This document shows positions 22,808 to 63,400 of a DNA stretch of 64,000 nucleotides, one piece after another. The position numbers were made by a program, and so were the translations under genes. Origin of the DNA: an uncultured Actinomycetes bacterium (GTDB lineage Bacteria; Actinomycetota; UBA4738; JBBDTT01); NCBI GenBank assembly GCA_963742735.1, contig CAVUMN010000001.1, positions 1 to 64,000 on the forward strand, written 5' to 3'. Each line of letters opens with the position of its first letter. Positions within the stretch are counted from its first letter, which is position 1. Below the pieces are notes generated by a model, which was not told the DNA's origin, ran no database searches, and saw only the letters and a program-made list of their open reading frames with translations.

Positions 22808-22826
22808 ATCTGACGGTCCGTCAGAT
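22808..22826. promoter_or_regulatory. 19-bp palindromic operator, copy 1
   Basis: ATCTGACGG-T-CCGTCAGAT, perfect, between divergent genes. Confidence 0.85.
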
Positions 22827-22848
22827 TCCGGTACGATTGGGCTCTCCA

Positions 22849-23919
22849 ATGCCCTATCGCGTGATCCAGTGGAGCACCGGGAACGTCGGGCGCTACGCCC
22901 TGCGCGGGATCATCAACCACCCCGACATGGAGCTGGCCGGCGTGTGGGTGTCGAGCGACGCCAAGGCCGGGATGGACGCGGGCGATCTGTGCGGCCTGCC
23001 CCCCGTCGGCGTGGCGGCGACCACCGACGCCGACGCGCTGCTGGCCCTCGACGCCGACGCCGTCTGCTACAACGCCACCGCCGACGTCCGGCTCCACGAG
23101 GCGCTCGCCGACATCGCGCGCATCCTCGAGTCCGGCAAGAACGTCGTGTCGTCCTCGATCGTGTTCCTCGTCGAGCCCAAGGGCGCCGATGCCGGATTCA
23201 CCGAGCCGCTCGAGAAGGCGTGCGCGGACGGCGGCGTGTCCTTCTTCACCTCCGGGATCGATCCCGGCTTCGCCAACGACGTCCTCCCCCTCGTGCTCTC
23301 GGGCGTGTGCGAGCGGATCGACTCGGTCCGGGTCCAGGAGGTCCTGAACTACGCCACGTACGACCAGCCCACGGTCCTGTTCGACACGATGGGCTTCGCC
23401 CAGCCGCTCGACGCCACGCCGCTCCTCCTCCAGCCCGGCATCCTCACGCTGGCGTGGGGAGGCACCATCCGGGCCATCGCCGACGGGCTGGGCGTGACCC
23501 TCGACGGCATCGAGGAGTTCCACGAGCGGCTGCCCGCTCCGGAGACCTTCCAGGTCCCCAGCGGGAAGGTGGAGGAGGGGACGACGGCGGCGATGCGGTT
23601 CGAGGTCCGGGGGATGATCAACGACGAGCCGAGGATCGTGCTGGAGCACGTCACGCGGCTGCGGCCCGACCTCGCGCCCGAGTGGGACCAGCCTCCCGGC
23701 GTGGGCGGCTACCGCGTGTTCATCAAGGGCTCCCCCGACGTGACCTGCGAGCTCACCACCGCCGGCGACGACGGCGACGAGAACTCGGGCGGGCTCATCG
23801 TGACCGCCATGCGCATGGTGAACGCGATCCCGGCCGTGGTCGCCGCGCCGCCCGGCCTGCTCGGGCCCCTGGACGTGGGCATCCCCACCGGCCGCGGGCT
23901 GCTGTCGGGGGGACAATGA
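22849..23919 (+). CDS. Dihydrodipicolinate reductase-like / diaminopentanoate dehydrogenase-like NAD(P) oxidoreductase
   Basis: IQWSTGNVG, GKNVVS, SGIDPGFAND, TAMRMVNAIPAV. Confidence 0.8.
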   Translation: MPYRVIQWSTGNVGRYALRGIINHPDMELAGVWVSSDAKAGMDAGDLCGLPPVGVAATTDADALLALDADAVCYNATADVRLHEALADIARILESGKNVVSSSIVFLVEPKGADAGFTEPLEKACADGGVSFFTSGIDPGFANDVLPLVLSGVCERIDSVRVQEVLNYATYDQPTVLFDTMGFAQPLDATPLLLQPGILTLAWGGTIRAIADGLGVTLDGIEEFHERLPAPETFQVPSGKVEEGTTAAMRFEVRGMINDEPRIVLEHVTRLRPDLAPEWDQPPGVGGYRVFIKGSPDVTCELTTAGDDGDENSGGLIVTAMRMVNAIPAVVAAPPGLLGPLDVGIPTGRGLLSGGQ

Positions 23920-24323
23920 CCCCGATGATCGAGGGCTGGTTCGACGCCGAGCCCGAGCCGCACCTGATCGGCGCGCGGTGCACAACGTGCGGCTCCTACG
24001 CGTTCCCGCCGACGGCGCCGGCGTGTCCGAACCCGTCGTGTCCCGGGACCGAGCTCGAGGCCGTCCCGTTGTCGAGGCGCGGCCGGCTGTGGTCGTGGAC
24101 CGTGGCTCGGTACGCCCCTCCCCCGCCCTACGTGGCCGCCGACCCGTTCGTCCCGTTCACGCTCGCGGCCGTCGAGCTCGAGGAAGAGCGGATGGTGATC
24201 CTCGGCCAGATGGATCCCGGCGCCGACCCGAACGGCCTCGCGGTGGGCGACGAGATGGAGCTCGTAGCGGGGAGTCTGTCCGGCGAGCCGGACGCCCCGA
24301 TCTGGAACTGGCGGCCGGCGTGA
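23916..24323 (+). CDS. DUF35 Zn-ribbon/OB-fold protein
   Basis: CTTCG...FPP...CPNPSC, GRLWSWT. ATGA and GTGA overlaps with neighbours. Confidence 0.88.
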   Translation: MTPMIEGWFDAEPEPHLIGARCTTCGSYAFPPTAPACPNPSCPGTELEAVPLSRRGRLWSWTVARYAPPPPYVAADPFVPFTLAAVELEEERMVILGQMDPGADPNGLAVGDEMELVAGSLSGEPDAPIWNWRPA

Positions 24324-25507
24324 GCTCGGTGGCCGTCCTCGGCGCGGGGATGCACCCGTGGGGCAAGTGGGGCCGGAGCTTCGCGGAGTACGGCGCCCAC
24401 GCGGCGCGGGCGGCGCTCGCCGACGCCGGCGTGGCCTGGGGCGACGTTGGCTACCTGGCCGCGGGCATCACCGTCCGCAACGGCTACCCCGGCTACGTCG
24501 CGGCCTCCACGTTCGCCCAGTCGCTCGGCTGGAACGGCGCGAACATCGCGTCCTGCTACGCCGCGTGCGCGTCCGGCGCTGCGGCCCTCGACGTCGCCCG
24601 CGCCCGGATCCTGGCCGGCCTGTGCGACGTCGCGCTCGTGGTCGGCGCCGACACCACGCCGAAGGGCTTCCTGGCCCCGAACACCGGCGAGCGGACCGAC
24701 GACCCCGACTGGCTCCGGTTCCGGCTCCTCGGCGCGACCAACCCGGCGTACTTCGGCCTGTACGCGCGGCGCCGGATCGCCCGCTACGGGGCGACCGAGC
24801 GCGACTTCGCCCTGGTCAAGGTGAAGAACAGCCGGCACGGCCTGAGCAACCCGAACGCCCGCTACCGCAAGGAGGTCACCGAGGACGAGGTCCTGGCCTC
24901 CCCCATCGTGGCCGACCCCCTGCACCTGCTGGACATCTGCGCGACGAGCGACGGCGGCGCGGCGATCGTGCTCTCGAGCCTGGAGTTCGCCCGCGCCCGC
25001 GGCGTGCAGGACCCGGTGCGGCTCGCCGCGATCTCCACGGTCACCCCGAGGTACCCGAAGACCGTGCTGGACCTCCCCGACTTCGCCACCGACTCGGCGG
25101 CCATGGTCGCGCCGCCCGAGACGGCGTATCGCGCCTCTATCGCTGCGGCGGCCTACGAGGAGGCGGGCCTGGGGCCGGAGGACCTGGACGTGGCCGAGGT
25201 CTACGACCTGTCCACCGCGCTCGAGCTCGACTGGTACGAGGACATCGGTCTGTGCAAGGAGGGGGAGGCCGAGCGTCTGCTGAACGACGGCGACACGACG
25301 ATCGGGGGACGCATCCCCGTGAACCCCAGCGGCGGGCTGGCCTGCTTCGGCGAGGCCGTGCCGGCCCAGGCGATCGCGCAGGTATGCGAGCTCACGTGGC
25401 AGCTTCGGGGGACGGCGGTGGGCCGCCAGGTCGAGGCGGCGAGCACCGGGCTCGCCGTGAACCAGGGACTGTTCGGACACGGCTCGGCCGTGATCGTGAC
25501 CACCTAG
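24320..25507 (+). CDS. SCP2/thiolase-like lipid-transfer protein (Ltp family)
   Basis: GMHPWGKW, YAACASG, CATSDGGAA, AEVYD, VNPSGGL. Paired with the DUF35 gene. Confidence 0.88.
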   Translation: MSSVAVLGAGMHPWGKWGRSFAEYGAHAARAALADAGVAWGDVGYLAAGITVRNGYPGYVAASTFAQSLGWNGANIASCYAACASGAAALDVARARILAGLCDVALVVGADTTPKGFLAPNTGERTDDPDWLRFRLLGATNPAYFGLYARRRIARYGATERDFALVKVKNSRHGLSNPNARYRKEVTEDEVLASPIVADPLHLLDICATSDGGAAIVLSSLEFARARGVQDPVRLAAISTVTPRYPKTVLDLPDFATDSAAMVAPPETAYRASIAAAAYEEAGLGPEDLDVAEVYDLSTALELDWYEDIGLCKEGEAERLLNDGDTTIGGRIPVNPSGGLACFGEAVPAQAIAQVCELTWQLRGTAVGRQVEAASTGLAVNQGLFGHGSAVIVTT

Positions 25508-25519
25508 GAGGAACCTTCA

Positions 25520-26665
25520 ATGGACGCGTACCTCGTCGACATCTGCCGGACGCCGGTGGGCAAGAAGAACGGCTCGCTGAAGGACGTGCACCCCGCCGAC
25601 ATGGGCGCGCACATCCTGTCGGCCCTCATGGAGCGGACCGGCGTCGACCCGAACGCGGTGGAGGACGTGATCCTCGGGTGCGTGGACACGATCGGCCCCA
25701 ACATGGGCGACATCGCGCGGACGTCGTGGCTGGCCGCCGGCCTGCCGGAGCACGTCCCCGGGGTGACGATCGACCGGCAGTGCGGGTCGGCCCAGCAGGC
25801 CGTCCACTTCGCGGCCCAGGCCGTGATGAGCGGCACCATGGACGTGGTCGTCGCCGGCGGCGTCCAGAACATGAGCATGGTCCCCATCGGGACCAGCCGG
25901 AAGCTCGCCGAGGAGGCGGGCTTCCCCCGGACGTTCCACGACTCCACGGGATGGGTGGCGCGCTACGGCGACCAGCCGGTGACGCAGTTCCACGCGGCCG
26001 AGCTGATCGCCGAGAAGTGGAGCATCTCCCGCGAGGACATGGAGGCGTTCGCCCTGGAGAGTCACCGGCGCGCGCTCCAGGCCACGCGGGAGGGCCGTTT
26101 CGCGAGCGAGATCGTGCCCCTGGCCGGCCTCTCGCATGACGAAGGTCCCCGTGAGACGTCGATGGAGAAGATGGCGGGGCTCCCCCTGGTCCCGGGATGC
26201 GAGCTGATCACCGCCGCGGTGTCCAGCCAGATCTCAGACGCCGCCACGGCCGCGCTGGTCGTCAACGAGCGGGCGATCGAGACTCACGGCCTGACCCCGC
26301 GGGCGAGGATCCACCACATCTCCGTCCGCGCGGACGACCCGATCTACATGCTGACCGGACCCATCGCCGCCACGTTCCACGCGCTGGAGAAGACGGGAAT
26401 GTCCCTGGACGACATCGACCTCGTCGAGATCAACGAGGCCTTCGCCCCCGTCGTCCTCGCCTGGCAGAAGGAGACCGGCGCCGACCTGGACAAGGTCAAC
26501 GTGAACGGCGGCGCCATCGCCCTGGGCCACCCCATCGGGGCGACCGGGACCCGGCTGATGGCCACGCTGCTGAACGAGCTGGAGCGAACGGGCGGCCGCT
26601 ACGGCCTGCAGACGATGTGCGAGGGCGGAGGCCAGGCGAACGTCACGATCATCGAGCGTGCCTGA
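25520..26665 (+). CDS. fadA6: Thiolase of steroid C/D-ring catabolism
   Basis: IDRQCGSAQQA, RYGDQ, ARIHHISVRADDP, GHPIGATG, GLQTMCEGGG match remembered Rv3556c features. Confidence 0.88.
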   Translation: MDAYLVDICRTPVGKKNGSLKDVHPADMGAHILSALMERTGVDPNAVEDVILGCVDTIGPNMGDIARTSWLAAGLPEHVPGVTIDRQCGSAQQAVHFAAQAVMSGTMDVVVAGGVQNMSMVPIGTSRKLAEEAGFPRTFHDSTGWVARYGDQPVTQFHAAELIAEKWSISREDMEAFALESHRRALQATREGRFASEIVPLAGLSHDEGPRETSMEKMAGLPLVPGCELITAAVSSQISDAATAALVVNERAIETHGLTPRARIHHISVRADDPIYMLTGPIAATFHALEKTGMSLDDIDLVEINEAFAPVVLAWQKETGADLDKVNVNGGAIALGHPIGATGTRLMATLLNELERTGGRYGLQTMCEGGGQANVTIIERA

Positions 26666-30474: not shown

Positions 30475-30493
30475 ATCTGACGGTCCGTCATAC
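30475..30493. promoter_or_regulatory. 19-bp palindromic operator, copy 2
   Basis: ATCTGACGG-T-CCGTCATAC between the divergent hydrolase and fadD19-like genes. Confidence 0.8.
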
Positions 30494-30544: not shown

Positions 30545-32152
30545 ATGACCTTCAATCTGGCGGATCTGTTCGAGGCGGTGTCGGACGCGATCCCCGACCG
30601 CCTGGCCCTCGTCGCCGGAGACCGCCGGCTCACGTATTCGGAGCTCGACGAGCGCGCCAACCGCCTGGCGCACGTCCTGTCCGGGGCCGGGATCGGTCCC
30701 GGAGACCACGTCGGGCTGCAGCTCATGAACGGGACCGAGTACCTCGAGGGGATGCTCGCCGCCTTCAAGCTCCGCGCGGTGCCGGTGAACGTGAACTACC
30801 GCTACGTCGAGGGCGAGCTCCGGCACCTGTTCGAGGACGCCGAGCTCTCCGCGCTCGTCTATCACCGGTCCTTCGGCCCCCGTGTGGCCTCGGTGGCGCC
30901 GGACGTCCCCGGCCTGAAGACGTTCGTGGTCGTGGACGACGGTTCGGACGAGGTGCCCGCCGGCGGATCGATCGAGTACGAGGCGGCCCTGGGCGACGTG
31001 CCGGCCGATCGCCCCCCGGGCGCCGGGCGGTCCTCCGACGACCTCTACATGGTCTACACGGGCGGAACGACCGGCATGCCGAAGGGCGTGGTGTGGCGCC
31101 ACGAGGACATCTTCAAGGCGGCGATGGGCGGCGGCGACATCACCCAGGGCGGCAACCACGTGACCGGTCCGGAGGAGCTCGCCGAACGCGTCACCGCGCA
31201 GCAGGGCGTGGCGGCCCTGGCCACCCCGCCGCTCATGCACTCGAGCGCCCACTGGCTGGCGTTCCATCAGCTGTTCACCGGCGGAGCCCTCGTCCTGGTG
31301 CCGCTCGGGAAGTTCGATCCCGCGCAGATCTGGGAGCTCGTCACCGGCGAGCGCGTGTTCATCCTGGTCGTGGTGGGCGACGCGATGGCGCGGCCGCTGA
31401 TCGAGGAGCTCCGGGCGAACGGCGACCGCTACGCGACCGACTCGCTGTGGGTCATCGGCTCGGGAGGCGCGATCCTGTCCAACGGCGCCAAGGAGCACCT
31501 GCTGGAGCTTCTCCCCAACCGAATGATCGCCGACGGCTTCGGGTCCTCGGAGACCGGGGTCCTCGGCAGCCGGAGTGGCGGGGGCGGCGCGACGTTCGTG
31601 GTCAACGACCAGACCGCGGTGCTGGACGACGACGGGCGGCCGGTGCCGGCGGGGTCGGGGACGGTGGGCCGGCTGGCCCGCCGCGGCCACATCCCGTTGC
31701 GCTACCACGGCGACCCCGAGAAGACCGCGCGAACGTTCCTCGAGTCGGACGGCGTCCGGTGGGTGCTTCCCGGCGACATGGCCACGGTCGAGCCGGACGG
31801 CACGATCGCGCTGCTCGGGCGGGGCTCGCTGTCGATCAACACCGGCGGGGAGAAGGTGTTCCCCGAGGAGGTGGAGATGGTGCTTCGCGACCACCCGGAC
31901 GTGGCGGACGCGGTGGTGGTCGGCGTCCCCGACGAGCGATGGGGCGAGCGCGTCGTCGCCGTCGTGGCCCCGAGGGCGAGCGACGGGCTCTCCCTGGAGT
32001 CGCTGCAGGCGGCGTGCCGCGAGCGGCTCGCCGGCTACAAGGTCCCCCGGGGTCTGGTCGAGGTCGACGCGATCGTTCGCTCCCCAGCAGGCAAGGCCGA
32101 CTACGCGTGGGCCAAGGCCCGCGCGATCGAGGACCTGGGGGTGAGCCCATGA
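30545..32152 (+). CDS. fadD19: Acyl-CoA synthetase, steroid side-chain type
   Basis: FNLADLFE, VNVNYRYVEGEL, YTGGTTGMPKGVVWRHEDI, INTGGEKVFPEEVE, RSPAGKADY. Confidence 0.78.
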   Translation: MTFNLADLFEAVSDAIPDRLALVAGDRRLTYSELDERANRLAHVLSGAGIGPGDHVGLQLMNGTEYLEGMLAAFKLRAVPVNVNYRYVEGELRHLFEDAELSALVYHRSFGPRVASVAPDVPGLKTFVVVDDGSDEVPAGGSIEYEAALGDVPADRPPGAGRSSDDLYMVYTGGTTGMPKGVVWRHEDIFKAAMGGGDITQGGNHVTGPEELAERVTAQQGVAALATPPLMHSSAHWLAFHQLFTGGALVLVPLGKFDPAQIWELVTGERVFILVVVGDAMARPLIEELRANGDRYATDSLWVIGSGGAILSNGAKEHLLELLPNRMIADGFGSSETGVLGSRSGGGGATFVVNDQTAVLDDDGRPVPAGSGTVGRLARRGHIPLRYHGDPEKTARTFLESDGVRWVLPGDMATVEPDGTIALLGRGSLSINTGGEKVFPEEVEMVLRDHPDVADAVVVGVPDERWGERVVAVVAPRASDGLSLESLQAACRERLAGYKVPRGLVEVDAIVRSPAGKADYAWAKARAIEDLGVSP

Positions 32153-33643
32153 AGCGACTGTCGGGGCTCGACGCGACGTTCCTGTACATGGAGACGCCGA
32201 CCTCCCCCATGCACGTCATGGGCGTCCTGCTGCTCGACACGAAGACCGCGCCCGAGGGCTACTCGTTCGACAAGGTCCGGGAGATGCTCCTGTCTCGGAT
32301 CCACCTGATGCCGGCGTTCCGGCGACGGCTGGTGCCGGTCCCACTCGGCCTGGCCCATCCCGTGTGGATCGAAGACGCGGAGTTCGACCTGGACAACCAC
32401 CTGCACCGGATCGGGGTGCCACCGCCCGGCGACCTTCGGGCGCTGGAGGGCGTGGTGGGCGACATCGCCGGCCAGACCCTCGACCGCGGCAAGCCGCTGT
32501 GGGACATGTGGGTGGTCGAGGGCCTGAGGGACGGCCGGGCCGCGGTCATCACGAAGATGCACCACTCGACCATCGACGGGACGTCCGGAGCGGACGTGAT
32601 GGTCCACCTGTTGGACATCACCCCGGAGGTCTCGGTCCCCGAGCCGCCCGACGGGCCGTTCACCGGCGAGCGCCGCCCGTCCGACCTTCGGCTGCTGGGG
32701 GGCGCGCTGGCCGCGCAGGCCGGGACACCCGTCCGCGCCGTGAAGGCCGTCGGCAAGCTGGCCGGCAACGCCGTGCGCACCGCCAGGGGCTACCTGCAGA
32801 AGGAGATGCGGGAGGCGTCACCGCCGCCGTTCTCGGCGCCGCGGACGAAGTTCAGCGGCGCGCTGTCCTCGCACCGCGCCGTCGCGTTCGGCGGCGCCTC
32901 GCTGGACGACCTCAAGGAGATCAAGGCCGCCTTCGACGGCAAGGTCAACGACGTGGTCCTGGCCATCGCCACGCATGCCATGCGCGGCTACCTCGAGTGG
33001 GCCGGCGAGCTTCCCGACCGCCCGCTGGTGGCGAGCTGTCCGATCTCGGTGCGCAAGGAGGCCGCCGAGGGCGAGCCCGCGAACGACTCGGCCAACCAGG
33101 TCTCCAACATGCTCGTCCCCCTCCCGGTGCAGATGAAGGACCCGGTGAAGCGGCTGAAGACGATCATCGAGAGCACCAAGCGGTCGAAGGAGCTCGCGAA
33201 CGCCATCGGGGCCGAGACGCTCATGGACTGGGCGGAGTTCCTGGCGCCACGTCTGTTCACCACGGGGATGCGCCTGTACTCGGCCACCCGAATGGGCAAC
33301 CTCCATCCGCCCGCCCTGAACCTCATCGTCTCGAACGTGCCCGGCCCGCCCATTCCCCTGTACTCGGCCGGGGCCCGGATCGTCGCGATCTACCCGATGG
33401 GACCGCTCCTCCCCGGCGCCGGCATCAACGTCACCGTCCTGTCGAACATGGGAAACGTCGACTTCGGCGTGATCGCCGACCGCGAGACGGTGCCGGAGAT
33501 CTGGCGCATCGCGGACGGGCTGAAGGAGGGCGTCGACGTCCTGCTCGCGGCCGCGCGCGCGCCGAAGCGGAAGCCGGCGGCCAGGGCGAAGCCGAGGGCC
33601 CGCGAAGCCCGGCGGCGGAAGAGGGCGCGCGGCCGGCGCGTGA
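32149..33643 (+). CDS. WS/DGAT no. 2 (as written, reads through in frame into the next gene up to 34356)
   Basis: GLDATFLYMET, HHSTIDG, SNVPGP. Removing one base near 33600 gives a TGA stop at 33641-33643. Confidence 0.85.
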
Positions 33644-34356
33644 GCGCGACACCCGCCGGCGTCGTGGTCGAGGGCCGGACCCTCCAGTTCCCCATCGAGG
33701 TCCGCGACGCGTCCTCGTGGGGGGCGGTCTTCTCGGTCCCCGCCGAGGCCGCCCAGCGTCTGGTCGAGCCCTCCGGCCTGCGGGTGGTGCACACGGGTCC
33801 CGGCCGGACGGCGGTCACCCTCGTCTTCGCGGACTACCGCGACGGCGACCTGGACGCCTATCACGAGTTCGGCGTGAGCTTCCTGGTCCATCCGCACGGC
33901 GGCGCGTCCAGGCTCGACCTTCTCCGCAACCGCGCGGGCGTGTACATCCACCGCCTCCCGGTGAACGAGACGTTCACGATGCACGCCGGGCGGACGATCT
34001 GGGGCTACCCGAAGACCCTGGCCGACATCGACATCCGCGCCGACGGCGCCACGACCACCTGCGAGCTGGCGACCGACGGAGCGATGCAGGTCCGGCTGGC
34101 CGTGGCGTCGCGGGGCCGGGTGCCGATGCCCCGCCAGAGCCCGCCCACCTACACGTTCCTCGACGGCGTCCTTCGCCGGACCGAATGGGAGGTCGCCACG
34201 CGCGCGTACGCGGGACGGCGGGGCTCAGTCGAGCTCGGGACGGGGGAGATCGCCGACGAGCTCCGTGGGCTCGGGCTGCCCCGCAAGCCGCTGCTGGTCC
34301 TGAGCCAGCCCGAGTTCCGGGTGCGGTTCGGGCCGTCGGAGGTCGTCAGGGCCTGA
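33640..34356 (+). CDS. Acetoacetate decarboxylase-like family protein (separate gene or fused domain)
   Basis: DYRDGDLDAYHEFGV, LPVN, GRTIWGYPK. GTG start at 33640. Confidence 0.75.
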   Translation: MSATPAGVVVEGRTLQFPIEVRDASSWGAVFSVPAEAAQRLVEPSGLRVVHTGPGRTAVTLVFADYRDGDLDAYHEFGVSFLVHPHGGASRLDLLRNRAGVYIHRLPVNETFTMHAGRTIWGYPKTLADIDIRADGATTTCELATDGAMQVRLAVASRGRVPMPRQSPPTYTFLDGVLRRTEWEVATRAYAGRRGSVELGTGEIADELRGLGLPRKPLLVLSQPEFRVRFGPSEVVRA

Positions 34357-35407
34357 CAGGCGGGACAGGGTCGCCTCGGCCTCGGCCACGATCCGCGCGA
34401 CGAGCTCCCCCACCGACGGGAGGTCCTCGATCATCCCCACCACCTGGCCGCTGGCCATCACGCCGAGGTCGGTCCGTCCCTCGACCATGGCCGCACGCAG
34501 GAGCATCGGGGTGTTCGCCGCCATGATCACCTGGCCCCACGTGAGGTCCTGGGTCTTCCGCATGGCCCGGCCCTCGCGAAGCATCTGCCGCAGCGGGATC
34601 CCCGAGAGCTTGCGGAACGCGAACGCGTTGCGGATCGCTCGGAGGAACCCACCGGCGCCGCTCTCCCGCTCCAGCCGCTCGATGAGCTGCGTGAGCAGCA
34701 CCCGGTGGGGCACGCCGTCCACCCTACGGGTGACCACCGTGTCGGTCACGCCCCGGTCCAGGTAGTAGGTCTTCACCGCCTCGGGGACGGGGCTCTCCCG
34801 GGTCAGCAGGAAGCGAGTTCCCATCGCCACGCCGCTCGCGCCGTAGGCGAGCGCCGCGACCAGGCCGCGGCCGTCGAAGAAGCCGCCGGCGGCGATGACC
34901 GGCACGTCCACGGCGTCGACCACCTGCGGCAGCAGCAGGGTGGTGGCGACGGGGCCGGTGTGGCCGCCCGCCCTCGCCGCCCTGGACCAGGACCGCGTCG
35001 ACGCCCATCGCCGCGACCTTCTCGGCGTGCCGCCGGGCGCCGATCGAGGGGATCACCAGGACCCCGCCCCCGCGGAGGCGGTCGATCACGTCCTGCCGGG
35101 GCGCCATGGCGAACGACGCCACCCGGACACCCCGTTCGATCATCAGGTCCGCCCGGCCGGCGATGTCGGGCTGGTCGGCCCGCAGGTTCACCCCGAACGG
35201 GCGGTCGGTGCGGGCGCGCACCTGATCGATCGCCTCCCGGAGCTCGTCGAGGCTCATCGTCGCCGCGCCGAGGATGCCGAACCCGCCCGCGGCGCTGGTG
35301 GCCGCGGTCAGCGAGGGGCCGGCCACCCACCCCATCCCGGTCTGGACGATGGGGTGTTCCACCCCGAGCAGCTGGCACAGCGGCGTGCGCAGCGCGGGAT
35401 GGCTCAC
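34225..35407 (-). CDS. ipdC: Nitronate monooxygenase-like enoyl-CoA reductase of the HIP pathway; one frameshift near 34968
   Basis: HPIVQTGMGWVAG, FGVNLRAD, QGGEGG(fs)HTG, IAAGGFFDGRG, AANTPMLL, GVMASGQV. Follows ipdB. Confidence 0.88.
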
Positions 35408-36153
35408 GCGGGCACCTCGGCGTCGCGGAGGCCGTCCGGGTCCAGGACCTGCCGGATCAGCCGGAGCTCCTTCCGGTCGGGCCCGCGCGTCTCCGGCACG
35501 TCGCCGGGGATCTCCAGCTCGAAGCCGGTCGCCGCGACGACGTCCTCGACGGTGACGCCGGGGTGGACCGACGCCAGCCGCATCAGGCCCGACCGCGGGT
35601 CGAAGTCCATGACGGCCAGGTTCGAGACCACGCGGCGGATCTCGTGGAAGCCGTACAGCGGCGGCTCGGCGCGGTCGTTGCCGATGCCCGAGACGAAGTC
35701 GACGTGCTCGACGAACACGCGGGGCCCGTGGTTGGGGACCCAGTAGCTCGTCGTGTGGTTCGCGGTGTTCCCGGGCGCGCCGCGCGATCCGAGCAGCTGG
35801 ACCTTCGGGTGCGCCCAGTCGCCGATGCAGGAGATGTTCTGGTTGCCGAAGCGGTCGATCTGGGTGGCCCCCATGATCACGTGCCGGCGACCCGCCCACA
35901 CCAGGTCGAACACCGACCGGAACGGCAGCCACGACTCGACGACCTTGTCGTCGTCCTTCGCGCCGATGGGCAGGTCGTTGGCGACCAGGTAGGCCTCGCC
36001 GTCGCTCACCAGCAGGTCGGGCTCGAACGTGGCCCGGGCCAGCCGGGCGCCGAGCATCGAGACCGTGCCCATGGCGCTGGCCAGGATCTCGCCGTCGCCG
36101 CGGAACGCCTCGGCGCAGGCGACCACGCAGACCTCGGCCCGGGTCGGGCTCAT
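35404..36153 (-). CDS. ipdB: COCHEA-CoA hydrolase beta subunit (CoA-transferase fold)
   Basis: TRAEVCVVACAE, SDGEA, ESWLPFR, QIDRFGNQNISCIG, GSRGAPGNT. Confidence 0.92.
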   Translation of the reverse strand: MSPTRAEVCVVACAEAFRGDGEILASAMGTVSMLGARLARATFEPDLLVSDGEAYLVANDLPIGAKDDDKVVESWLPFRSVFDLVWAGRRHVIMGATQIDRFGNQNISCIGDWAHPKVQLLGSRGAPGNTANHTTSYWVPNHGPRVFVEHVDFVSGIGNDRAEPPLYGFHEIRRVVSNLAVMDFDPRSGLMRLASVHPGVTVEDVVAATGFELEIPGDVPETRGPDRKELRLIRQVLDPDGLRDAEVPA

Positions 36154-36995
36154 CCGGCCTCCACCTCCCTGCGGTAGTCGTCCTCGGTCCCGTCCAGGTA
36201 CCGGGCCCGGAACGCCGACCACGCCTCGGGGTCGCGGGCCGACTCCGCGTACGTCGCCTGGAAGGCCTCGTCGCGCCCGTAGTCCGGCACGCACGAGGTG
36301 AAGTGGGCCCCGTTCGGCGTCTCCACCACGGCGTCGGTCATCGCCCGGTTCACGCGCAGGGTCTGCACCGGGCCCTCCTTGGCGAAGTCGGCGGTGTCGA
36401 CGACGCGCTCGCACGACACGAACCGTCGCTCCGCGGCCATCAGGAACAGGTCGTCGAAGTAGGGGTCGGGGCCGAGGATCTGGCCGTTGCCGCCGGCGTC
36501 GGCCCGATGGACGTGGACGAAGGCGGCGTCCAGGCGAAGCGGCGGGACGGCGACGACCTCCTCCTCGGAGTACGGCGAGCCGACCATCTTCAGGTCGGGG
36601 TTGACCTTCAGGATGTCGGAGCCGAGCCCGGCCCGGGTGGGCATGAACGGCAGCCGGTGCGCCGCCGCCAGCAGCGCCAGGTAGAACATCCCCTCGTCGA
36701 GCTCGCGGGCCTGGATCTCCCCCCGCTCCCGCGCGGCCCGAAAGTGCGGCTCGAGCGGGATCGAGTCCAGCGAGACGAACCCGAACACGACCTTGCGCAC
36801 CTTCCCGGCCGCGCACAACAGGCCCACGTCGGGACCTCCGTAGGACGCCACCGTCAGGTCCTTCACCGGCGAGCGCAGGATCTCGCGGACCAGGGACATC
36901 GGCTTGCGCCGCGACCCCCATCCGCCGACGCCGATCGCCATGCCGTCGCGAAGCTCCGACACGACCTCGGCGGCCGTCGCCCGCTTGTCGGCCAC
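36150..36995 (-). CDS. ipdA: COCHEA-CoA hydrolase alpha subunit
   Basis: GGWGSRRKPM, GFVSLDS, DEGM, DPYFDDLF, GAHFT. Confidence 0.92.
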   Translation of the reverse strand: MADKRATAAEVVSELRDGMAIGVGGWGSRRKPMSLVREILRSPVKDLTVASYGGPDVGLLCAAGKVRKVVFGFVSLDSIPLEPHFRAARERGEIQARELDEGMFYLALLAAAHRLPFMPTRAGLGSDILKVNPDLKMVGSPYSEEEVVAVPPLRLDAAFVHVHRADAGGNGQILGPDPYFDDLFLMAAERRFVSCERVVDTADFAKEGPVQTLRVNRAMTDAVVETPNGAHFTSCVPDYGRDEAFQATYAESARDPEAWSAFRARYLDGTEDDYRREVEAG

Positions 36996-37001
36996 GCCCG
37001 G

Positions 37002-37760
37002 CTAGTCCCCGAAGGAGGGGTCTCGCTTCTCCACGAACGCGCGCCGGGCCTCTTCGGGCACGTCGGTGAGGCTCAGCTCGAAGGTGAACCCCTGCTCGTA
37101 GCGGTAGCTCCGGCGGACGTCGACGGGGTCGATCCCGTTCAGCGCCTCCTTGGCGGCACGAAGCAGGCGCGGGTGATACGCGGCCAGCGCCTCGGCGACC
37201 GCCCGCGCCTCGGTGAGGAGGTCGTCCCGGCCAACGACCTTCGCGACCGAGCCCCACGAGTGGAGCTGGGTGGCCGTTGCCGTTGCCCCCGTGTAGAACA
37301 TGTAGCGAACCTCGTGTGCTGGAACCAGCCGCGCCAGATGGGTGGCAGCCCCGAGCGCACCCCGCGCCAGCTCCGGGAGACCAAACGTTGCATCCTCTGC
37401 CGCGATGACGATGTCGGCGTTGCCGGCCAGCCCGATCCCGCCGCCCAGGCAGAAGCCGTGGACCGCCGCGATCACCGGGACCTCGCACTCGTAGACCGCC
37501 GCGAACGCGGCGGCACAGCCCCGGTTGACCGCGATGATCTCCTCGTTCGACGGGTCGGCATCGAGGGCCTTGATGTCCACGCCGGCGCAGAACCCGCGCC
37601 CTTCGGCGCGCAGGATCACCACGTGCACGTCGGGATCGGCGCCCGCCGCGCGAAGCACGTCGGCCAGCTCGAGCCAGCCCTTCGAGGAGAGCGCGTTGAC
37701 CGGCGGGACGTCGATGACGACGTCGGCGATGTGCTCGGAGGTGTTGGAGGAGATGCCCAT
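37002..37760 (-). CDS. echA20: HIEC-CoA hydrolase (crotonase family)
   Basis: PPVNAL, GFCAGVDIK, NRGC, GALGAATHL, SYRYEQGFTFEL. First gene of echA20-ipdABC. Confidence 0.92.
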   Translation of the reverse strand: MGISSNTSEHIADVVIDVPPVNALSSKGWLELADVLRAAGADPDVHVVILRAEGRGFCAGVDIKALDADPSNEEIIAVNRGCAAAFAAVYECEVPVIAAVHGFCLGGGIGLAGNADIVIAAEDATFGLPELARGALGAATHLARLVPAHEVRYMFYTGATATATQLHSWGSVAKVVGRDDLLTEARAVAEALAAYHPRLLRAAKEALNGIDPVDVRRSYRYEQGFTFELSLTDVPEEARRAFVEKRDPSFGD

Positions 37761-37767
37761 CGTCAGT

Positions 37768-37786
37768 TCCTGACGGTGCGTCAGAT
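37768..37786. promoter_or_regulatory. 19-bp palindromic operator, copy 3
   Basis: TCCTGACGG-T-GCGTCAGAT, 7 nt upstream of the echA20 start. Confidence 0.8.
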
Positions 37787-42977: not shown

Positions 42978-42988
42978 GTCGTCTCCTT

Positions 42989-43462: not shown

Positions 43463-43971
43463 GAGGAGGCCTCCCCGCGGACATAGCTGAACATCTCGTA
43501 GGTCTCCACGCCGACGATCTCGTCGTTCTGGTTGCGATAGGTGACGTCGATCGTCCAGTTGCGGCCCCTGCCGACGCGGCTCTCGCGGAACTCGCCGATC
43601 TCGCGGACGGACTCCGTGGTCCGAACGCGGTCGCCGGGCCGGACCGGTGCGTAAAACGCGATCTCGTTGCGATACACGATGCCGTCGGGGAGGCCGAACG
43701 CCTCCTTCATGCGGAAGTGGAGCTCCAGCGGGCGGACAGCCTCTGCGGCGTCCGGCTTCCACACCAGCGGCCGCATCCAGACCGACAGCATCGACGGCGG
43801 AGCCACCGGTCCACCCGAGAGGTGCTGGGCCTGCTGGGGGTCCCAATACAGCGGGTTCGCGTTCTCCGTGGCCTCCAGCCAGTGCAGGATCGCGCCGGGC
43901 TCGCAGGCGATGTCCCCCAGCGGGTTCTCCAGCTCGACGCCGGTCCACTTCGCGACCAGGTCGTCGGTCAC
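43459..43971 (-). CDS. MaoC-like hydratase partner (ChsH2 N-terminal-like, no DUF35)
   Basis: ILHWLEA..NANPLYWD, VAPPSMLSVW, PVRPGD, TYRNQNDEIV. Confidence 0.8.
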   Translation of the reverse strand: MTDDLVAKWTGVELENPLGDIACEPGAILHWLEATENANPLYWDPQQAQHLSGGPVAPPSMLSVWMRPLVWKPDAAEAVRPLELHFRMKEAFGLPDGIVYRNEIAFYAPVRPGDRVRTTESVREIGEFRESRVGRGRNWTIDVTYRNQNDEIVGVETYEMFSYVRGEASS

Positions 43972-45011: not shown

Positions 45012-45018
45012 CGGCCCG

Positions 45019-46213: not shown

Positions 46214-46232
46214 ATCTGACGGACCGTCAGAT
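46214..46232. promoter_or_regulatory. 19-bp palindromic operator, copy 4
   Basis: ATCTGACGG-A-CCGTCAGAT, perfect, 12 nt upstream of the ACAD GTG. Confidence 0.85.
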
Positions 46233-47896: not shown

Positions 47897-47898
47897 GG

Positions 47899-55757: not shown

Positions 55758-56420
55758 CTAGAGGCTCGGAGCCGGACGGCCGGTGACCCCCGAGAAGAGG
55801 ATCGTGGTTACGCTGCGGCGCATGTCGTCGGTCTTGATCCCCCAGAACTCGAAGCCGTAGCGATGGGCGGCGACGTGGACGAGCAAGGACACGAGCGCGG
55901 CGGCCTGGGCCATCGGCTCGGGGCCGCGGCGGGTCCGGCGCTGGGCGCTCTCGATGGCCCGGCGGAGGCTCTCCGTGACCTCGTTGAGCAGGTGGGTGCG
56001 CACGTTCTGGAACCGCATGTCGCCCTCCGCGGTGGAGAGGTCCACCACGCGCAGCACGGCGCGGTGCCGCTCCCACAGGTCCAGGATCGCGTCGACCAGG
56101 TCCTCCGACGCGCTGTATCCGTTGCGGCCCCGCCAGTCGGCGTCGTCGATGATCGCGGTGAGCTTCGGCGCCTCGTCGGCCAGCGCGCGAGCCAGGACCA
56201 GGACGGCCGCCTCCACGTCCTCGAAGTACTGGTAGAAGGTCGCCGGCGAGGTCCCCGCGCACTCCGCGATGTCGACGACCGACAGGTCCCGGTAGGACGT
56301 CTTCTCCAGGAGCTCGGCGGTGCAGGCCAGGAGGCGCTCACGCGTTGCCCGGCCCCGCTTTCCGGGCACCCGCCCGTCGACGGCGGGGAGGTCCTCGGGG
56401 ACGGGGCGCAGGTCGGCCAT
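55758..56420 (-). CDS. TetR-family transcriptional regulator
   Basis: RATRERLL...SVVDIAECAGTSPATFYQYFED (HTH). Confidence 0.92.
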   Translation of the reverse strand: MADLRPVPEDLPAVDGRVPGKRGRATRERLLACTAELLEKTSYRDLSVVDIAECAGTSPATFYQYFEDVEAAVLVLARALADEAPKLTAIIDDADWRGRNGYSASEDLVDAILDLWERHRAVLRVVDLSTAEGDMRFQNVRTHLLNEVTESLRRAIESAQRRTRRGPEPMAQAAALVSLLVHVAAHRYGFEFWGIKTDDMRRSVTTILFSGVTGRPAPSL

Positions 56421-57052
56421 CAGATCTCCTCCAACCACTCGCGGATCACGTCGTCGGTGGTCACCACCGTTGCCAGCAGCGACAGCGTGTTGTCGATGAT
56501 CGTCTCGGCGTACTCCTCGGGGACACCCGCCACGGCGTCGCGTGGCAGTACGAACTCGTAGCCGAGGTTCACGGCGTCCATGACGAAGTTCGTGATCCCC
56601 ACGTTCACCGAGACGCCCGCCCCGATGATCGTCCTCACCCCGAGGTTGCGCAGGACCGCGTCGAGGTCGGTCCCCGCCATCGGCCCGATGCCGTGGTACC
56701 GCGACAGCACGATGTCCGTGGGCTGGAGGGCGACCTCGTCCACGAGCTGCACGGCCTCGCTGTCGGGGGTGAGGGCCACCTCGGAGTTGACGGCCGCGGT
56801 GAACAGCCGCGCGTTCGTGTTCGAGCCGGCCCCGTCGAGCCGCCGCATGGCCACGCAGTGGATGACGGCGGCGCCGGCCACCCGGGCCGCGCGAGCCAGG
56901 CGGCCGCAGTTCTCGAGCATCCCCTGCTGCGCGATCTTCGCCAGCTCCGGGAAGACCGCCGGCTCCCCCACCACGCCCTTCTGGATCTCCTGTGTGACGA
57001 GCGCCGTGTGCACCGGAAGGATCAGCCCGCGCAGGTCGTCGTGCCCGCTCAC
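56420..57052 (-). CDS. Isochorismatase-fold hydrolase lacking the catalytic Cys
   Basis: ALVTQEIQ, LRNLGVRT, GVSVNVGI, DAVNLGY...DAVAG. Confidence 0.82.
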   Translation of the reverse strand: MSGHDDLRGLILPVHTALVTQEIQKGVVGEPAVFPELAKIAQQGMLENCGRLARAARVAGAAVIHCVAMRRLDGAGSNTNARLFTAAVNSEVALTPDSEAVQLVDEVALQPTDIVLSRYHGIGPMAGTDLDAVLRNLGVRTIIGAGVSVNVGITNFVMDAVNLGYEFVLPRDAVAGVPEEYAETIIDNTLSLLATVVTTDDVIREWLEEI

Positions 57053-58041
57053 GGTTTCACCTTCGGCAGCACGGTCTCCTGGAACAGCCGCAGCCCCTCC
57101 CAGCCCCACTCGGGCGGCATTCCGGAGATCAGCGGGTTCAGGACCACGTTGCCCATCGGGCCGAGCGACTCGATGAACGCCACGGCGTCGTCGGGGGTCA
57201 GCACCTTGAACAGGCCCTCCTCGCGGAGCTCGGCCGGCGACTGCGCGTACGACGAGACCTGCGAGCGGACGTCAGGCGACTGCAGGGCGCGGTAGGACTC
57301 CACCTCGTACCAGAAGTACGGCTCGAACCGCGCCCAGTCGCGTTCGGGGTCCTCGGAGACGTACAGGTACCCGACCTCCTGGGGCAGGATCACCAGCCCG
57401 CCTCCCCAGCCGTCCGCGGCGCACGCCTCCTTGTAGACCCGCTCCAGCTCCGGATCCGCGATGGCGGGGAGGAATCCCACCCGAAGCCGGGCCGCGCGCT
57501 TCGCCGCCGCGGCGCTGGATCCGCCCATGAGGATCATCGGCTCGGGCGAGCTCACCGGCCGTGGCGTGACCTTCACGGTGCGTCCCCGGTACTCGAACGG
57601 CTCGCCGGTCCACGCCTGCCGGCAGACCGAGATCGCCGCTTCCACGAGCTTGCCGCGGCCTTTGGGCTCGACGCCCTGCATCGCCAGCTCGAACTCGACG
57701 TAGCCGGCGCCGGCGATGAGCCACAGCCGGCCGGGTCCGGCGGTGATGTCCACCACCGCGATCTGCTCCGCAACGCGGACGGGGTCGTGGAACGGGAACA
57801 CCAGCGCCGCGATCATGATCCGAACCGTCTCGGTCACCGCGCCGACCGCGGCGGCGAAGGTCAGGGGGGATGGCAGCCAGCCGTCGTCCATCCCGTGGTG
57901 CTCCGTGAGCGTGATGATGTCGGCGACGCGGTGCTCGTCCGCCCACGCGGCCTGCTCCAGGCAGGCTCGGTAGAGGTCGGCGTGCGAGGCCTCGGCGAAC
58001 GGCGCGGTGCGCAGGTCGTAGCGGATCGCGATGAACGGCAT
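57049..58041 (-). CDS. Luciferase-like (LLM) oxidoreductase
   Basis: RYDLR, LTEHHG.DDGWLPSP, HDPVRVAEQ, GAGY, GGSS.AAAKRAAR. Confidence 0.88.
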   Translation of the reverse strand: MPFIAIRYDLRTAPFAEASHADLYRACLEQAAWADEHRVADIITLTEHHGMDDGWLPSPLTFAAAVGAVTETVRIMIAALVFPFHDPVRVAEQIAVVDITAGPGRLWLIAGAGYVEFELAMQGVEPKGRGKLVEAAISVCRQAWTGEPFEYRGRTVKVTPRPVSSPEPMILMGGSSAAAAKRAARLRVGFLPAIADPELERVYKEACAADGWGGGLVILPQEVGYLYVSEDPERDWARFEPYFWYEVESYRALQSPDVRSQVSSYAQSPAELREEGLFKVLTPDDAVAFIESLGPMGNVVLNPLISGMPPEWGWEGLRLFQETVLPKVKP

Positions 58042-58057: not shown

Positions 58058-58076
58058 ACCTGACGGTGCGTCAGAT
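58058..58076. promoter_or_regulatory. 19-bp palindromic operator, copy 5
   Basis: ACCTGACGG-T-GCGTCAGAT upstream of the LLM-isochorismatase-tetR operon. Confidence 0.8.
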
Positions 58077-60438: not shown

Positions 60439-60490
60439 GGGCCTCTCCAGCGTTTGTCGGAAGCTCGACCGTACCCGCAAACTGGAGGGC

Positions 60491-61798: not shown

Positions 61799-63365
61799 CG
61801 CTGAACCCGAGCGCCTCCAGGTCCCACGTTTCCTCGGTCACGCCGCGGTCGCGTAGCAGGTGCTTCATCACCCGCAGGGTGGCCGTCTTCGGGAGCTCGG
61901 GCAGGACTTCCACGTAGCGCGGGATCGCGAAGTAGGGCAGCGTGGCCTTGAAGTACTCGAACACTTCGTCCGGCCGGAACTCGGCGCCGGGCTCCAGCAC
62001 CAGGCAGGCCTTGATGTCGTCCTCGGTGAGGGCCGAGGGCACCGCGTGGACGGCCGCCTCGGCGACCCTGGGGTGGGCCACGATCGCCCGTTCGAGCTCC
62101 ACGGAGGAGACGTTCTCGCCGCGGCGGCGCAGGGCGTCCTTCTTGCGGTCCACGAACGTGAGGACGCCGTCCCCGGACATCCGGCCGAGGTCGCCGGTGT
62201 GGTGCCACAGGTTGCGCCACGCCTCGAGGGTGGCCTCGGGCTTGCCCCAGTACCCCAGATAGACGGCGTTCGGGATGCGGGGGCGAACGACGATCTCGCC
62301 CGGCTCCCCCGCTGGGACCTCGCCGTCCTCCTCGTCGACGACGCGCACGTCCAGGTACGGCGCCGGCCGGCCGACGCTCGCCGGGTCGACGCCCTCGGAG
62401 AGCGCGCTGTATGCGATCGCGCCGGTCTCGGTCTGGCCGTACAGCTGGGACAGCACCCGGGCGCCGAACCGCTCCTCGAACCGCCGTTGGTCGTCGACCG
62501 CGAACGGGATCATCAGCGCGACCCGGAGCCGGCCGGCGCGGTCCAGGTCCGAGGGCTCCGTCGCCAGCAGGGCCATGCCCATCATTCCCACGCCCAGGAA
62601 GACGCTTGCGCCGGTCTCCGCGAACCGCTCGCGAAGGCCTCCGACCGAGAAGACCGGGTCGACGATCGCCTGCAGCCCGTAGACCAGCGTGCCCATCATC
62701 GTGCCCTGCGCCCACGCGTGGAACAGCGGCAGGCAGGTCAGCACGACGTCGTCGTCGCGGTACTCGACCATCCGCGAGCTGACGGTCGAGCCGGTGAGGT
62801 ACCAGCCGTGCGGGAGCATGCAACCCTTGGGCATCCCCGTGGTTCCGGACGTGTAGAGGATGGACAGGAGGGTCTCCGGCGACAGGTCCGCCTCCGGGAG
62901 CTTCGCGTCGGCCGAGGCGAGCTCCGCGAAGGGGGTGTTCTCGATCCCCTCGACCGAGCCGTCGTCGAGGGTGACCGCCCGGACCAGGTCCGGAAGCTCG
63001 GCCATCAGCGGGGCCACGGCCCCCACCCCGGCCGCGTCGGTGACCAGGGTCGAGGCCTGCGAGTCGCGGAGCTGGTAGCGGAGGAACTCACCCTTCAGGA
63101 ACACGTTCAGGGGGACGAAGACCGCCCCGAGCTTGGCGCACGCGAAGAACAGCTCGGCCATCTCGATGCGGTTCCCGGAGATCACGGCCACCCGGTCGCC
63201 CGGCCGCACGCCGAGGGCGGCCAGACCGGCGGCGGCGGACCCCGACCGCGCGTCCGTCTCTTCGAAGGTGCGCCGGTCCTCGCCGGACCATAGATATGGG
63301 GCATCCCCGAGCGCGGCGGCCTGCGAGCGCAGGGCCTCGCCCACGGTCCGCCAGGCTGGCTCCAT
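61776..63365 (-). CDS. AMP-forming acyl-CoA ligase (CaiC-like)
   Basis: YTSGTTGMPKG, LPLFH, YGQTE, HTGDLG, DRKKDALRRRGENVSS. Confidence 0.9.
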   Translation of the reverse strand: MEPAWRTVGEALRSQAAALGDAPYLWSGEDRRTFEETDARSGSAAAGLAALGVRPGDRVAVISGNRIEMAELFFACAKLGAVFVPLNVFLKGEFLRYQLRDSQASTLVTDAAGVGAVAPLMAELPDLVRAVTLDDGSVEGIENTPFAELASADAKLPEADLSPETLLSILYTSGTTGMPKGCMLPHGWYLTGSTVSSRMVEYRDDDVVLTCLPLFHAWAQGTMMGTLVYGLQAIVDPVFSVGGLRERFAETGASVFLGVGMMGMALLATEPSDLDRAGRLRVALMIPFAVDDQRRFEERFGARVLSQLYGQTETGAIAYSALSEGVDPASVGRPAPYLDVRVVDEEDGEVPAGEPGEIVVRPRIPNAVYLGYWGKPEATLEAWRNLWHHTGDLGRMSGDGVLTFVDRKKDALRRRGENVSSVELERAIVAHPRVAEAAVHAVPSALTEDDIKACLVLEPGAEFRPDEVFEYFKATLPYFAIPRYVEVLPELPKTATLRVMKHLLRDRGVTEETWDLEALGFSVRPDERR

Positions 63366-63381
63366 GGGTCCGTACGATACG

Positions 63382-63400
63382 ATCTGACGCACCGTCAGAT
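63382..63400. promoter_or_regulatory. 19-bp palindromic operator, copy 6
   Basis: ATCTGACGC-A-CCGTCAGAT between two divergent CoA ligase genes. Confidence 0.85.

Follow-up and report, generated by a model that had tools for sequence, protein, structure and literature searches.

The closest described system is the KstR2 regulon, in which, in the available text of two reports, a TetR repressor controls the C/D-ring (HIP) genes echA20, ipdABC and fadA6 separately from KstR (PMC5380842, PMC4810484). A TetR repressor separate from KstR is likewise predicted for these genes in the window, the whole 64,000-nucleotide stretch of an uncultured Actinomycetes genome analysed here, and a FadD3-like ligase appears to belong to the predicted regulon of genome G027. 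The two systems differ in operator (a 19-bp palindrome of consensus ATCTGACG-N3-CGTCAGAT here, AnCAAGnnCTTGnT for KstR2) and in the C-terminal domain of the regulator (PF19352 here, PF17932 in KstR2). Moreover, the present regulon is wider, extending to LLM oxidoreductases, a cyclase, an isochorismatase, amidohydrolases and a WS/DGAT, and is present in Streptomyces. A Streptomyces homologue of the window TetR (locus L120; 45% identity, identical recognition segment) adjoins kbpA and afsK, the position given for SCO4421 in the available text of PMC3878966 and PMC5640586; on gene order rather than a direct comparison of sequences, SCO4421/SAV3818 is taken to be its counterpart in Streptomyces. 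The same text describes SCO4421 as up-regulated in sporulation, with a mutant that has no phenotype, and SAV3818 as stimulating avermectin by a mechanism not established, and gives neither operator nor targets for them. SCO442x is not mentioned in the main text, as available, of a DAP-seq atlas of 789 S. coelicolor transcription factors (bioRxiv 10.64898/2026.06.06.730586). A preliminary description of this DNA had not recognised the motif as characterised, and we likewise found no paper describing it in the open literature (most subscription journals lay outside the search).

A second comparison is with the E. coli chromosome organisers SlmA (SBS sites) and MatP (matS sites), each credited, in the available text of PMC3116907, with roughly two dozen sequence-specific palindromes (23 for matS). 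In that account SlmA is TetR-related, with sites mainly in coding regions and no gene regulation, and its sites are absent from Ter, to which matS is confined.

The window holds six copies of the operator:

22808..22826, perfect palindrome, between an acyl-CoA dehydrogenase pair (minus) and a dehydrogenase/OB-fold/thiolase/fadA6-type operon (plus)
30475..30493, two mismatches, between a hydrolase-like ORF (minus) and a fadD19-type ligase with WS/DGAT (plus)
37768..37786, between echA20-ipdA-ipdB-ipdC (minus) and an SDR gene (plus)
46214..46232, perfect palindrome, 12 nt upstream of an ACAD/CoA-transferase/MaoC/MaoC/ACAD operon (minus)
58058..58076, 16 nt upstream of an LLM oxidoreductase-isochorismatase-TetR run (minus)
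63382..63400, between an acyl-CoA ligase gene (minus) and an acetate-CoA-ligase-family gene (plus)

All six positions given in the preliminary description were confirmed, with 0 matches in 100 dinucleotide shuffles, as were its two perfect palindromes (9-1-9, at 22808 and 46214; the 63382 copy has perfect 8-bp arms) and its placement of five sites between divergent genes and none within a CDS, all six being intergenic. Among the 25 arm/spacer classes listed, the 19-bp motif takes the top four places and is the strongest gapped palindrome genome-wide. A TAnnnT hexamer falls inside the search span at three of the six, and at 22808 it starts 5 nt past the site on both strands. The 30475 operator is conserved in the sister genome G001, that at 37768 in G001, G027 and G115, that at 46214 in G001, G027 and G012, and that at 63382 in G001, with G027 also carrying a site upstream of the homologue of the plus-strand gene. 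The 58058 site, which abuts the stop codon of a cyclase gene and has minus-strand genes on both sides, is inferred to be the autoregulatory site of the TetR operon.

The genes that these sites would control, and the candidate regulator, are as follows:

20716..22790, minus, two-gene acyl-CoA dehydrogenase, predicted target
22849..26665, plus, DAP-dehydrogenase-like, ChsH2-type OB-fold, lipid-transfer-type thiolase and fadA6-type thiolase genes, predicted target
30545..34356, plus, fadD19-type acyl-CoA ligase and WS/DGAT, predicted target
34225..37760, minus, echA20, ipdA, ipdB and ipdC, predicted target
41850..46201, minus, ACAD, CaiB-type CoA transferase, two MaoC-like dehydratases and ACAD, predicted target
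55758..56420, minus, TetR_N plus TetR_C_38 (PF19352), candidate cognate repressor, EthR-like fold, SCO4421/SAV3818 family by gene order
56420..58041, minus, isochorismatase-family and LLM oxidoreductase genes, adjoining TetR and preceding it
61776-63365, minus, acyl-CoA ligase, predicted target
63419 on (region to 64000), plus, acetate-CoA-ligase-family gene, start only in the window, predicted target

Several of the gene labels first proposed stand, whereas fadE31/32 is a tentative one. IpdA matches solved IpdA at E 4e-100, and the echA20-type hydratase, fadA6-type thiolase, WS/DGAT and fadD19-type ligase lie above family cut-offs, with PRK family numbers that we take to be those of fadA6, echA20 and fadD19. 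The operon at 41850-46201 had been called igr-like. It is not the igr operon: the genes for ChsH2 and FadE26 are found at C1 81.5-83.7 kb, and no solved protein matches the 41850 ACAD at E<1e-40. Both ipdC and the first ACAD listed for this operon are broken by frameshifts in the source assembly and whole in G001. The isochorismatase and LLM oxidoreductase genes are inferred from their position to be co-transcribed with TetR.

That the 19-bp palindrome serves the TetR at 55758-56420 as operator is very probable on several lines of evidence. This TetR is present in 19 of 200 sampled Actinomycetota genomes, and the motif occurs in 18 of those 19 versus 4 of 181 TetR-less genomes (one copy in each of the four), counts that span related genomes, so are not independent across kin, and that place G006 among the genomes with neither. 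G235 has the TetR and lacks the exact motif. Three of 150 genomes of the class have the motif, and two of these carry the TetR; G012, the third motif-bearing genome, breaks off within the operon, and G006 is again counted among those with neither. Around 80 TetR homologues, 132 sites were found in 64 loci, 118 of them near a start and none in CDS (30 permuted matrices: median 0 sites, maximum 13), and promoters of acyl-CoA catabolic genes retain the motif across the phylum. The SPATFYQY recognition segment is invariant in 13 aligned TetR sequences, one of them from Streptomyces, and the TetR operon is headed by a site in G000, G001, G027 and G012 and, overall, in 26 of 74 evaluable loci. Because the TetR travels with the cluster, another cluster-linked regulator, for example the IclR at 51842-52711, may bind the operator instead. 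A probable operator and a predicted regulon are hereby assigned to a widespread, unexplained regulator family, SCO4421/SAV3818.

EthR of Mycobacterium is a TetR protein with a hydrophobic ligand. It provides the closest solved fold (PDB 1t56, 5nz0; TM 0.74-0.75, ~20% identity) and is too distant for its ligand or operator to be transferred to the window TetR. An Arg-rich loop at residues ~158-167, present in the eight closest TetR sequences, is a candidate new interface.

Outside the window the motif follows a different pattern. Scanned with a matrix built from the six window sites, the genome yields 28 matches scoring over 20 bits (mean 0.4 and maximum 7 for 20 permuted matrices). The expected tie to lipid-gene promoters holds for the six in the window but not for the 22 outside the cluster, which are mostly off such promoters: 14 lie in CDS, all in one frame that reads xLTxRQx, five over stop codons and three in intergenic DNA, as called by a codon-based gene caller tuned on G000, an assembly with frameshifts. 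Host genes of the dispersed copies include those for Lon, RNase PH, pyrimidine phosphorylase, sensor kinases, proline dehydrogenase and a glycosylase-like ORF. Sites with 0, 1, 2 and 3 mismatches number 11, 9, 8 and 6 against permuted medians of 0, 0, 0 and 3, so the excess ends at two mismatches. Exact 15-mers in CDS number 10 versus 0.33 in 30 synonymous shuffles. The in-CDS copies keep rare codons (CGT 5%, GAT 9%), and their free central triplet varies.

In both genus members the Lon and pyrimidine phosphorylase sites have 0 mismatches, versus 7-12 and 5-11, respectively, in 11 other genomes, a comparison made without the G006 loci L266, L284 and L303 and in which L277/L278 do not span the Lon site. 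At three aligned in-CDS sites residues have been replaced without indels, and those replaced in Lon are steady in relatives. Four dispersed sites are common to the source genome and G001 and some others have turned over, in a comparison that leaves out the sites at C4 464717, 1105919 and 1110087. The dispersed pattern is seen in two genomes and two metagenome contigs; in other TetR-bearing genomes 1 of 36 sites is in CDS. Near-perfect in-CDS copies are a new finding, and the other TetR-bearing genomes examined have almost none. An origin as insertion scars, MITEs or REP elements was rejected on the absence of indels at the three aligned sites and of extended repeat flanks, the single flank-repeat exception being one tandem duplication in G001. 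Assembly artefact was also rejected, as the sites recur in the independent G001 assembly and on contigs L157 and L167. Twelve further motif matches are on viral contigs of mixed G+C, none called at a promoter, and give no indication for or against a phage element.

The dispersed sites lie on C1, C3 and C4, span more than 1 Mb on C4 alone and are mildly clustered. Searching with the parS consensus located a canonical parS pair at C4 413852/413891, next to parB and dnaA; this pair is separate and the nearest 19-bp site is 48 kb from dnaA, so parS identity was rejected, and no site lies closer than 48 kb to oriC/dnaA. The GC skew, which is weak, peaks at C3 859 kb, with three dispersed sites at most 40 kb away, which would speak against a SlmA-like exclusion from the terminus; terminus and contig order are putative, the one dif-like match (C4 163646) not being credible. 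MatP/matS identity was rejected because the sites occupy three contigs rather than one macrodomain. Like SlmA, the protein considered here has a TetR fold and most of its predicted dispersed sites (14 of 22) in CDS. Unlike SlmA or matS sites, the dispersed sites appear to occur both close to the inferred terminus and on either arm, avoiding the oriC region, and, unlike SlmA, the window TetR retains an ordinary predicted catabolic regulon. The layout fits no known chromosome organiser.

We consider the following overall model reasonably likely, judging from the sequence comparisons. A TetR dimer would occupy both ATCTGACG half-sites, which cover the -35/-10 region in short and frequently leaderless promoters. 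It would keep its own operon silent together with acyl-CoA catabolic operons, the steroid C/D-ring set echA20-ipdABC and fadA6 among them, until a hydrophobic metabolite of the pathway (probably a CoA thioester) released it. It would thereby take KstR2's role, with the side-chain genes staying under KstR. In this genus the same TetR would also occupy the ~22 near-perfect sites across the chromosome, which would be kept through that occupancy and not through regulation of their host genes. That the dispersed sites are selected for binding, rather than for host-gene control, is itself probable. What the binding would serve is more tentative. Our leading guess, ahead of a titration reservoir, is a nucleoid-associated role; a chromosome-level purpose is possible but not probable, and the specific proposal that a pathway-specific TetR is being co-opted as a sequence-specific chromosome-binding protein is somewhat unlikely. 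Under co-option, point substitutions would have created the operator in about twenty unrelated genes, with altered amino acids as the price, and site positions would turn over like those of SlmA- or matS-type sites. If true, the TetR would represent a still-existing intermediate stage linking a transcription factor to a SlmA- or RefZ-like nucleoid factor. The dispersed sites bear on the origin of TetR-fold chromosome factors such as SlmA from transcription factors, and also on whether bacteria ever select decoy sites one by one. They offer a natural comparison between a genus with both the regulon and protein-altering dispersed sites and lineages with the regulon only.

Rather unlikely, in our judgement, is a titration reservoir in which ~22 high-affinity decoys would take up most of a repressor of low copy number, making induction of the catabolic cluster sharper or better buffered, with no chromosome role. 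The dispersed copies do match the operator optimum without promoter signs, their positions turn over with counts of similar magnitude (22 in the 3.08 Mb source genome, 10 in 2.2 Mb of G001), and their layout resembles no known organiser. Each decoy would, however, bring a small gain, yet steady Lon residues were replaced, and the same regulon works in other lineages without such sites. It is clearly unlikely that the TetR is a global regulator in this genus, acting on host or neighbouring genes through roadblocks or internal promoters. Two sites are suitably placed for this, one at codon 5 of an ABC permease gene (C1 119201) and one, with TAnnnT, 22 nt upstream of an acetyltransferase-like ORF (C3 279423), and the four sites common to G001 would also fit; but the host genes have no common theme, the majority of sites lie mid-gene or where convergent genes end, sites are gained and lost between the two genomes, and 21 of the 22 have no nearby -10 hexamer (TAnnnT near 1/22, versus 60/132 promoter sites and a 5% background). 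Distinctly improbable is that a second protein, short-patch conversion or biased DNA uptake makes the dispersed copies, their likeness to the operator being borrowed. A sequence-writing process would suit the RNase PH site, where 7 of 16 motif positions are unlike between the sister genomes (1 mismatch in one, 7 in the other), and the few excess intermediates with 3-4 mismatches. Against it, the arms persist and the central triplet drifts, as under continuing selection on binding, the absence of indels means that the sites are not insertion scars, and uptake sequences are far denser than ~7 copies per Mb; against a second protein, the genome has only one TetR of this family.

The binding model leaves KstR in place. 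The preliminary description had proposed one new repressor for both side-chain and C/D-ring genes, replacing KstR and KstR2, and this now appears very improbable. The motif does stand ahead of ipdAB, echA20, a fadA6-type thiolase and a fadD19-type ligase, and the cluster lacks a KstR2 box, but a KstR homologue exists (C1 114715, E 1e-28 versus solved KstR), together with eight KstR-type boxes in the source genome (consensus TnnAACnnGTTnnA, as in PMC5348764). Six are outside the window (C1 90297, 90333, 94484, 101688, 106591 and 114673), heading the side-chain cluster and the homologue's own promoter; two are in the window and belong to this separate KstR regulon:

12606..12619, KstR box before a thioesterase gene
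17695..17708, KstR box before an LLM oxidoreductase gene

The ChsH2/FadE26/ltp3-4/echA19 cluster and a second fadD19-type ligase have KstR boxes, and the 19-bp motif is absent from both. As first described, an exact-match search finds no KstR or KstR2 box at the six promoters, and identity of the motif with either was rejected. The KstR2 pattern AnCAAGnnCTTGnT, as given in the preliminary description, has one exact match genome-wide (C4 421963) and none in the cluster. A phmmer search of the window TetR against solved KstR2 gave no match, and the only strong PF17932 protein (C4 1516646, analysed without G006 loci) sits in an unrelated operon and matches three other solved TetRs ahead of KstR2. 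Operator and regulator family thus both agree with the earlier view that the repressor is not KstR2. From its placement, the 19-bp operator occupies KstR2's apparent place at echA20-ipdABC and fadA6, with the same C/D-ring targets also seen in G027 and G115, and C/D-ring genes outside mycolic-acid bacteria would be under a non-orthologous replacement of KstR2. The reading as a steroid regulon stands in part: the ipdAB, echA20 and fadA6 targets favour it, but in a genome 89% complete KshA (KshA_C) was not found and HsaC gave a weak match only (TIGR03213, 21.9 bits), and the regulon occurs in Streptomyces, of which 55 of 57 lack steroid pathways in the available text of PMC4810484.

The chance that the in-CDS copies arise as a side effect of codon usage and a frequent helix-start peptide, L-T-x-R-Q, is negligible. 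All 14 do share its frame, but the motif codons occur in 10 of 20 LTxRQ peptides (0.33 expected with the protein held fixed), and orthologues in other genera lack the peptide. One Streptomyces genome, which might have favoured it, has 7 in-frame in-CDS 15-mers among 20 sites, all scoring 8-18 of 35 bits.

The six copies of the 19-bp operator that the preliminary description had reported at 22808, 30475, 37768, 46214, 58058 and 63382 of the window, the opening 64 kb of contig C1 of the source genome G000 (3.08 Mb, 71% G+C, 89% complete), were all confirmed, with no match in 100 shuffles, and the motif is the outlier among the gapped palindromes of this genome. As described, five of the six lie in gaps flanked by divergent genes; the sixth, at 58058, occupies a tandem gap, 16 nt ahead of an LLM-isochorismatase-TetR run. 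The matching promoters of the sister genome of the same genus (G001), and of three relatives that represent two further families of the order (G027, G012 and G115), bear the same motif. The regulon behind it is real and old. Flavin-supply genes (FMN reductase and ribBA, 47303-49131) are part of the cluster in G000, G001 and G027, and in two other genomes (loci L331 and L341) a gene that we read as ribD-like has an operator some 300 nt ahead of it. Single frameshifts split ipdC (~34900), an acyl-CoA dehydrogenase (~45620) and an LLM oxidoreductase (~55000) in the window, with homologues unbroken in G001 or G027; because two of the broken genes are intact in G001, the frameshifts are probably assembly errors.

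The candidate reader of the motif is the window TetR (P0001; 55758-56420, minus strand), which carries TetR_N and TetR_C_38 domains, has homologues labeled Actinomycetota and is predicted to adopt a TetR fold nearest to EthR. Among 200 genomes sampled across the phylum this TetR occurs in 19, and the strict motif is found in 18 of these 19 versus 4 of the 181 others, with a single copy in each of the four, counts in which kin are not independent. Among 150 genomes of the class, three have the motif and two of the three the TetR; the contig of the third breaks off within the operon. A matrix trained on the six window sites alone, applied to the best 80 of 591 homologue loci (mostly Acidimicrobiia, one Frankiales and 23 Streptomyces), detected 132 sites distributed over 64 loci, versus a median of 0 for permuted matrices; 118 of the sites are close to a start and no site falls in a called CDS. 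Most of the genes that follow the sites encode acyl-CoA dehydrogenases, thiolases, ligases or amidohydrolases or belong to the TetR operon, which is itself headed by a site in no more than 26 of the 74 loci that could be evaluated. Since the window cluster also encodes an IclR, the pairing of motif with TetR is that of a candidate. The promoter sites very probably serve a standard ligand-released TetR repressor, with a C/D-ring fragment or some other acyl-CoA, cyclic or fatty, as its possible inducer. An Arg-rich loop at residues ~158-167 of P0001 is common to the eight closest sequences, P0001-P0008; in its place, more distantly related members of the family have a loop of G-x-H-P-R-D type. 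G000 also has, on contig C4 (818-918 kb), another large cluster for acyl-CoA catabolism, which lacks a promoter site and has its own TetR at C4 837837; homologues of this cluster in other genomes bear the operator.

A single repressor for both steroid pathway arms, as initially proposed, is contradicted by a KstR homologue at C1 114715 (E 1e-28 against the solved KstR) and by KstR-type boxes, located with the consensus given in the accessible part of PMC5348764:

C1 114673: KstR-type box, promoter of the KstR homologue
C1 90297, 90333, 94484, 101688 and 106591: KstR-type boxes, side-chain genes
Window 12606-12619 and 17695-17708: KstR-type boxes, separate KstR regulon

Furthermore, the true side-chain cluster at C1 77-107 kb (ChsH2, FadE26, ltp2/3/4-type thiolases, an EchA19-like hydratase and a second fadD19-type ligase) contains no 19-bp site. 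The candidate new TetR therefore takes the place of KstR2, not that of KstR. No KstR2 box occurs in the catabolic cluster of the window; the sole strong PF17932 protein of G000 is not convincing as a KstR2 orthologue. The steroid label holds only in part: IpdA is a clear orthologue (pathway in the available portion of PMC5380842), but KshA was not found and HsaC is a weak match only in this 89% complete genome, and steroid pathways are absent from 55 of 57 Streptomyces genomes, according to the part of PMC4810484 seen.

Outside the window, G000 has 22 more sites above 20 bits: 14 within CDS, five overlapping a stop codon and three intergenic. All 14 in-CDS sites, two of them read by eye in frameshifted genes, share one frame, x-L-T-x-R/H-Q-x, in hosts that by our reading of the translations include Lon, RNase PH, pyrimidine-nucleoside phosphorylase, two sensor kinases, proline dehydrogenase and an adenylate-cyclase-like protein. 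With proteins fixed and codons resampled, 10 exact 15-mers are observed in CDS versus 0.33 expected, and the excess stops at two mismatches. A nearby TAnnnT accompanies 1 of the 22 dispersed sites versus 60 of the 132 promoter sites of relatives. Lon reads DLTLRQI, with a perfect motif, in both G000 and G001; in 11 other genomes of the order the segment varies (DAALRVI is one example), with 7-12 mismatches but without gaps; pyrimidine-nucleoside phosphorylase repeats the pattern (0 mismatches in the genus versus 5-11 in 11 genomes). The RNase PH site is confined to G000 (1 mismatch, versus 7 in G001 and 7-12 in 17 others). We interpret the dispersed sites as selected for their DNA and not for protein, with the host gene irrelevant, the pattern expected of sites retained for occupancy.

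Dispersal is not general to the TetR family. Exact copies number 17 in G001 and 0-3 in the other 29 of 30 relatives. In G001 (61% complete) the dispersed sites number 10: four common to G000, one in a gene unmatched there and five where G000 has none; one more G000 site is missing from G001. The seven sites of G027 (same TetR, ≤2 mismatches) are all on its cluster contig, and of 36 strict sites examined across 11 other genomes with the TetR, one is in CDS. Two Acidimicrobiales genomes have 1 of 14 examined (22 in total) and 0 of 7 examined (14 in total) in CDS, and one Streptomyces genome 7 of 20 examined (21 in total), all low-scoring. Metagenomes gave 79 sites in 71 loci, six called in CDS; one of these lies at the same codons in a 90% relative of a G000 gene, and a contig-edge match is 97% identical to another in-CDS site of G000. 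Loci L148 and L178, on contigs not close to G000, have perfect copies in frame (DLTVRQI), one within a gene resembling ribosomal protein S2 and one within a different gene; these are due either to chance or to dispersal in a second lineage. In G001 (L033; contig C186, 2960 and 4537), two perfect operators stand on either side of tandemly duplicated genes for small membrane-protein-like products, and one of the operators overlaps the upstream gene's stop codon.

For such occupancy, a chromosome-level role is tentatively entertained. Known parallels, as far as the accessible text of PMC3116907 goes, are SlmA, TetR-related with sites mainly in coding regions, and matS, with 23 sites, but the layout here matches neither. 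The nearest site is 48 kb from dnaA and a canonical parS pair (C4 414-418 kb), and three sites lie within 40 kb of the GC skew peak (C3 859 kb). The window would be near the terminus if the C3 end joins the C1 start (uvrC to uvrA). The sites show mild clumping: 12 gaps are <50 kb (P about 0.002), and the largest void measures 543 kb (P 0.19). Titration is a somewhat fainter possibility, gene-by-gene control is unlikely, and another binder or process is unlikelier still. Skew and gene order (C3 ~859 kb, C4 ~416 kb) also suggest very unequal replichores, about 0.8 versus 2.2 Mb of assembled DNA, which may reflect missing DNA, inversion or misassembly.

The Streptomyces homologue of the window TetR adjoins kbpA and afsK and, by gene position, occupies the place of SCO4421, which the portion of PMC3878966 available describes as induced in sporulation, its mutant without phenotype. 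By numbering from afsK-av (SAV3816), SAV3818 would be the S. avermitilis counterpart (PMC5640586 and PMC3897704, both in part). No description of the operator was found in the literature searched; the main text of the 2026 S. coelicolor DAP-seq atlas (bioRxiv 10.64898/2026.06.06.730586) is without SCO442x, and its supplements may contain the motif. The spread of this operator into proteins is specific to the genus.

The ends of contig C2 of G000 (about 1-13 kb and 205-224 kb) hold fragmented ORFs, along with genes that seem out of place in this genome, some of them proteobacterial in appearance; these ends are possibly low-quality or chimeric, and C2 carries no operator site. A tRNA-SeC is called at C4 787839-787933.
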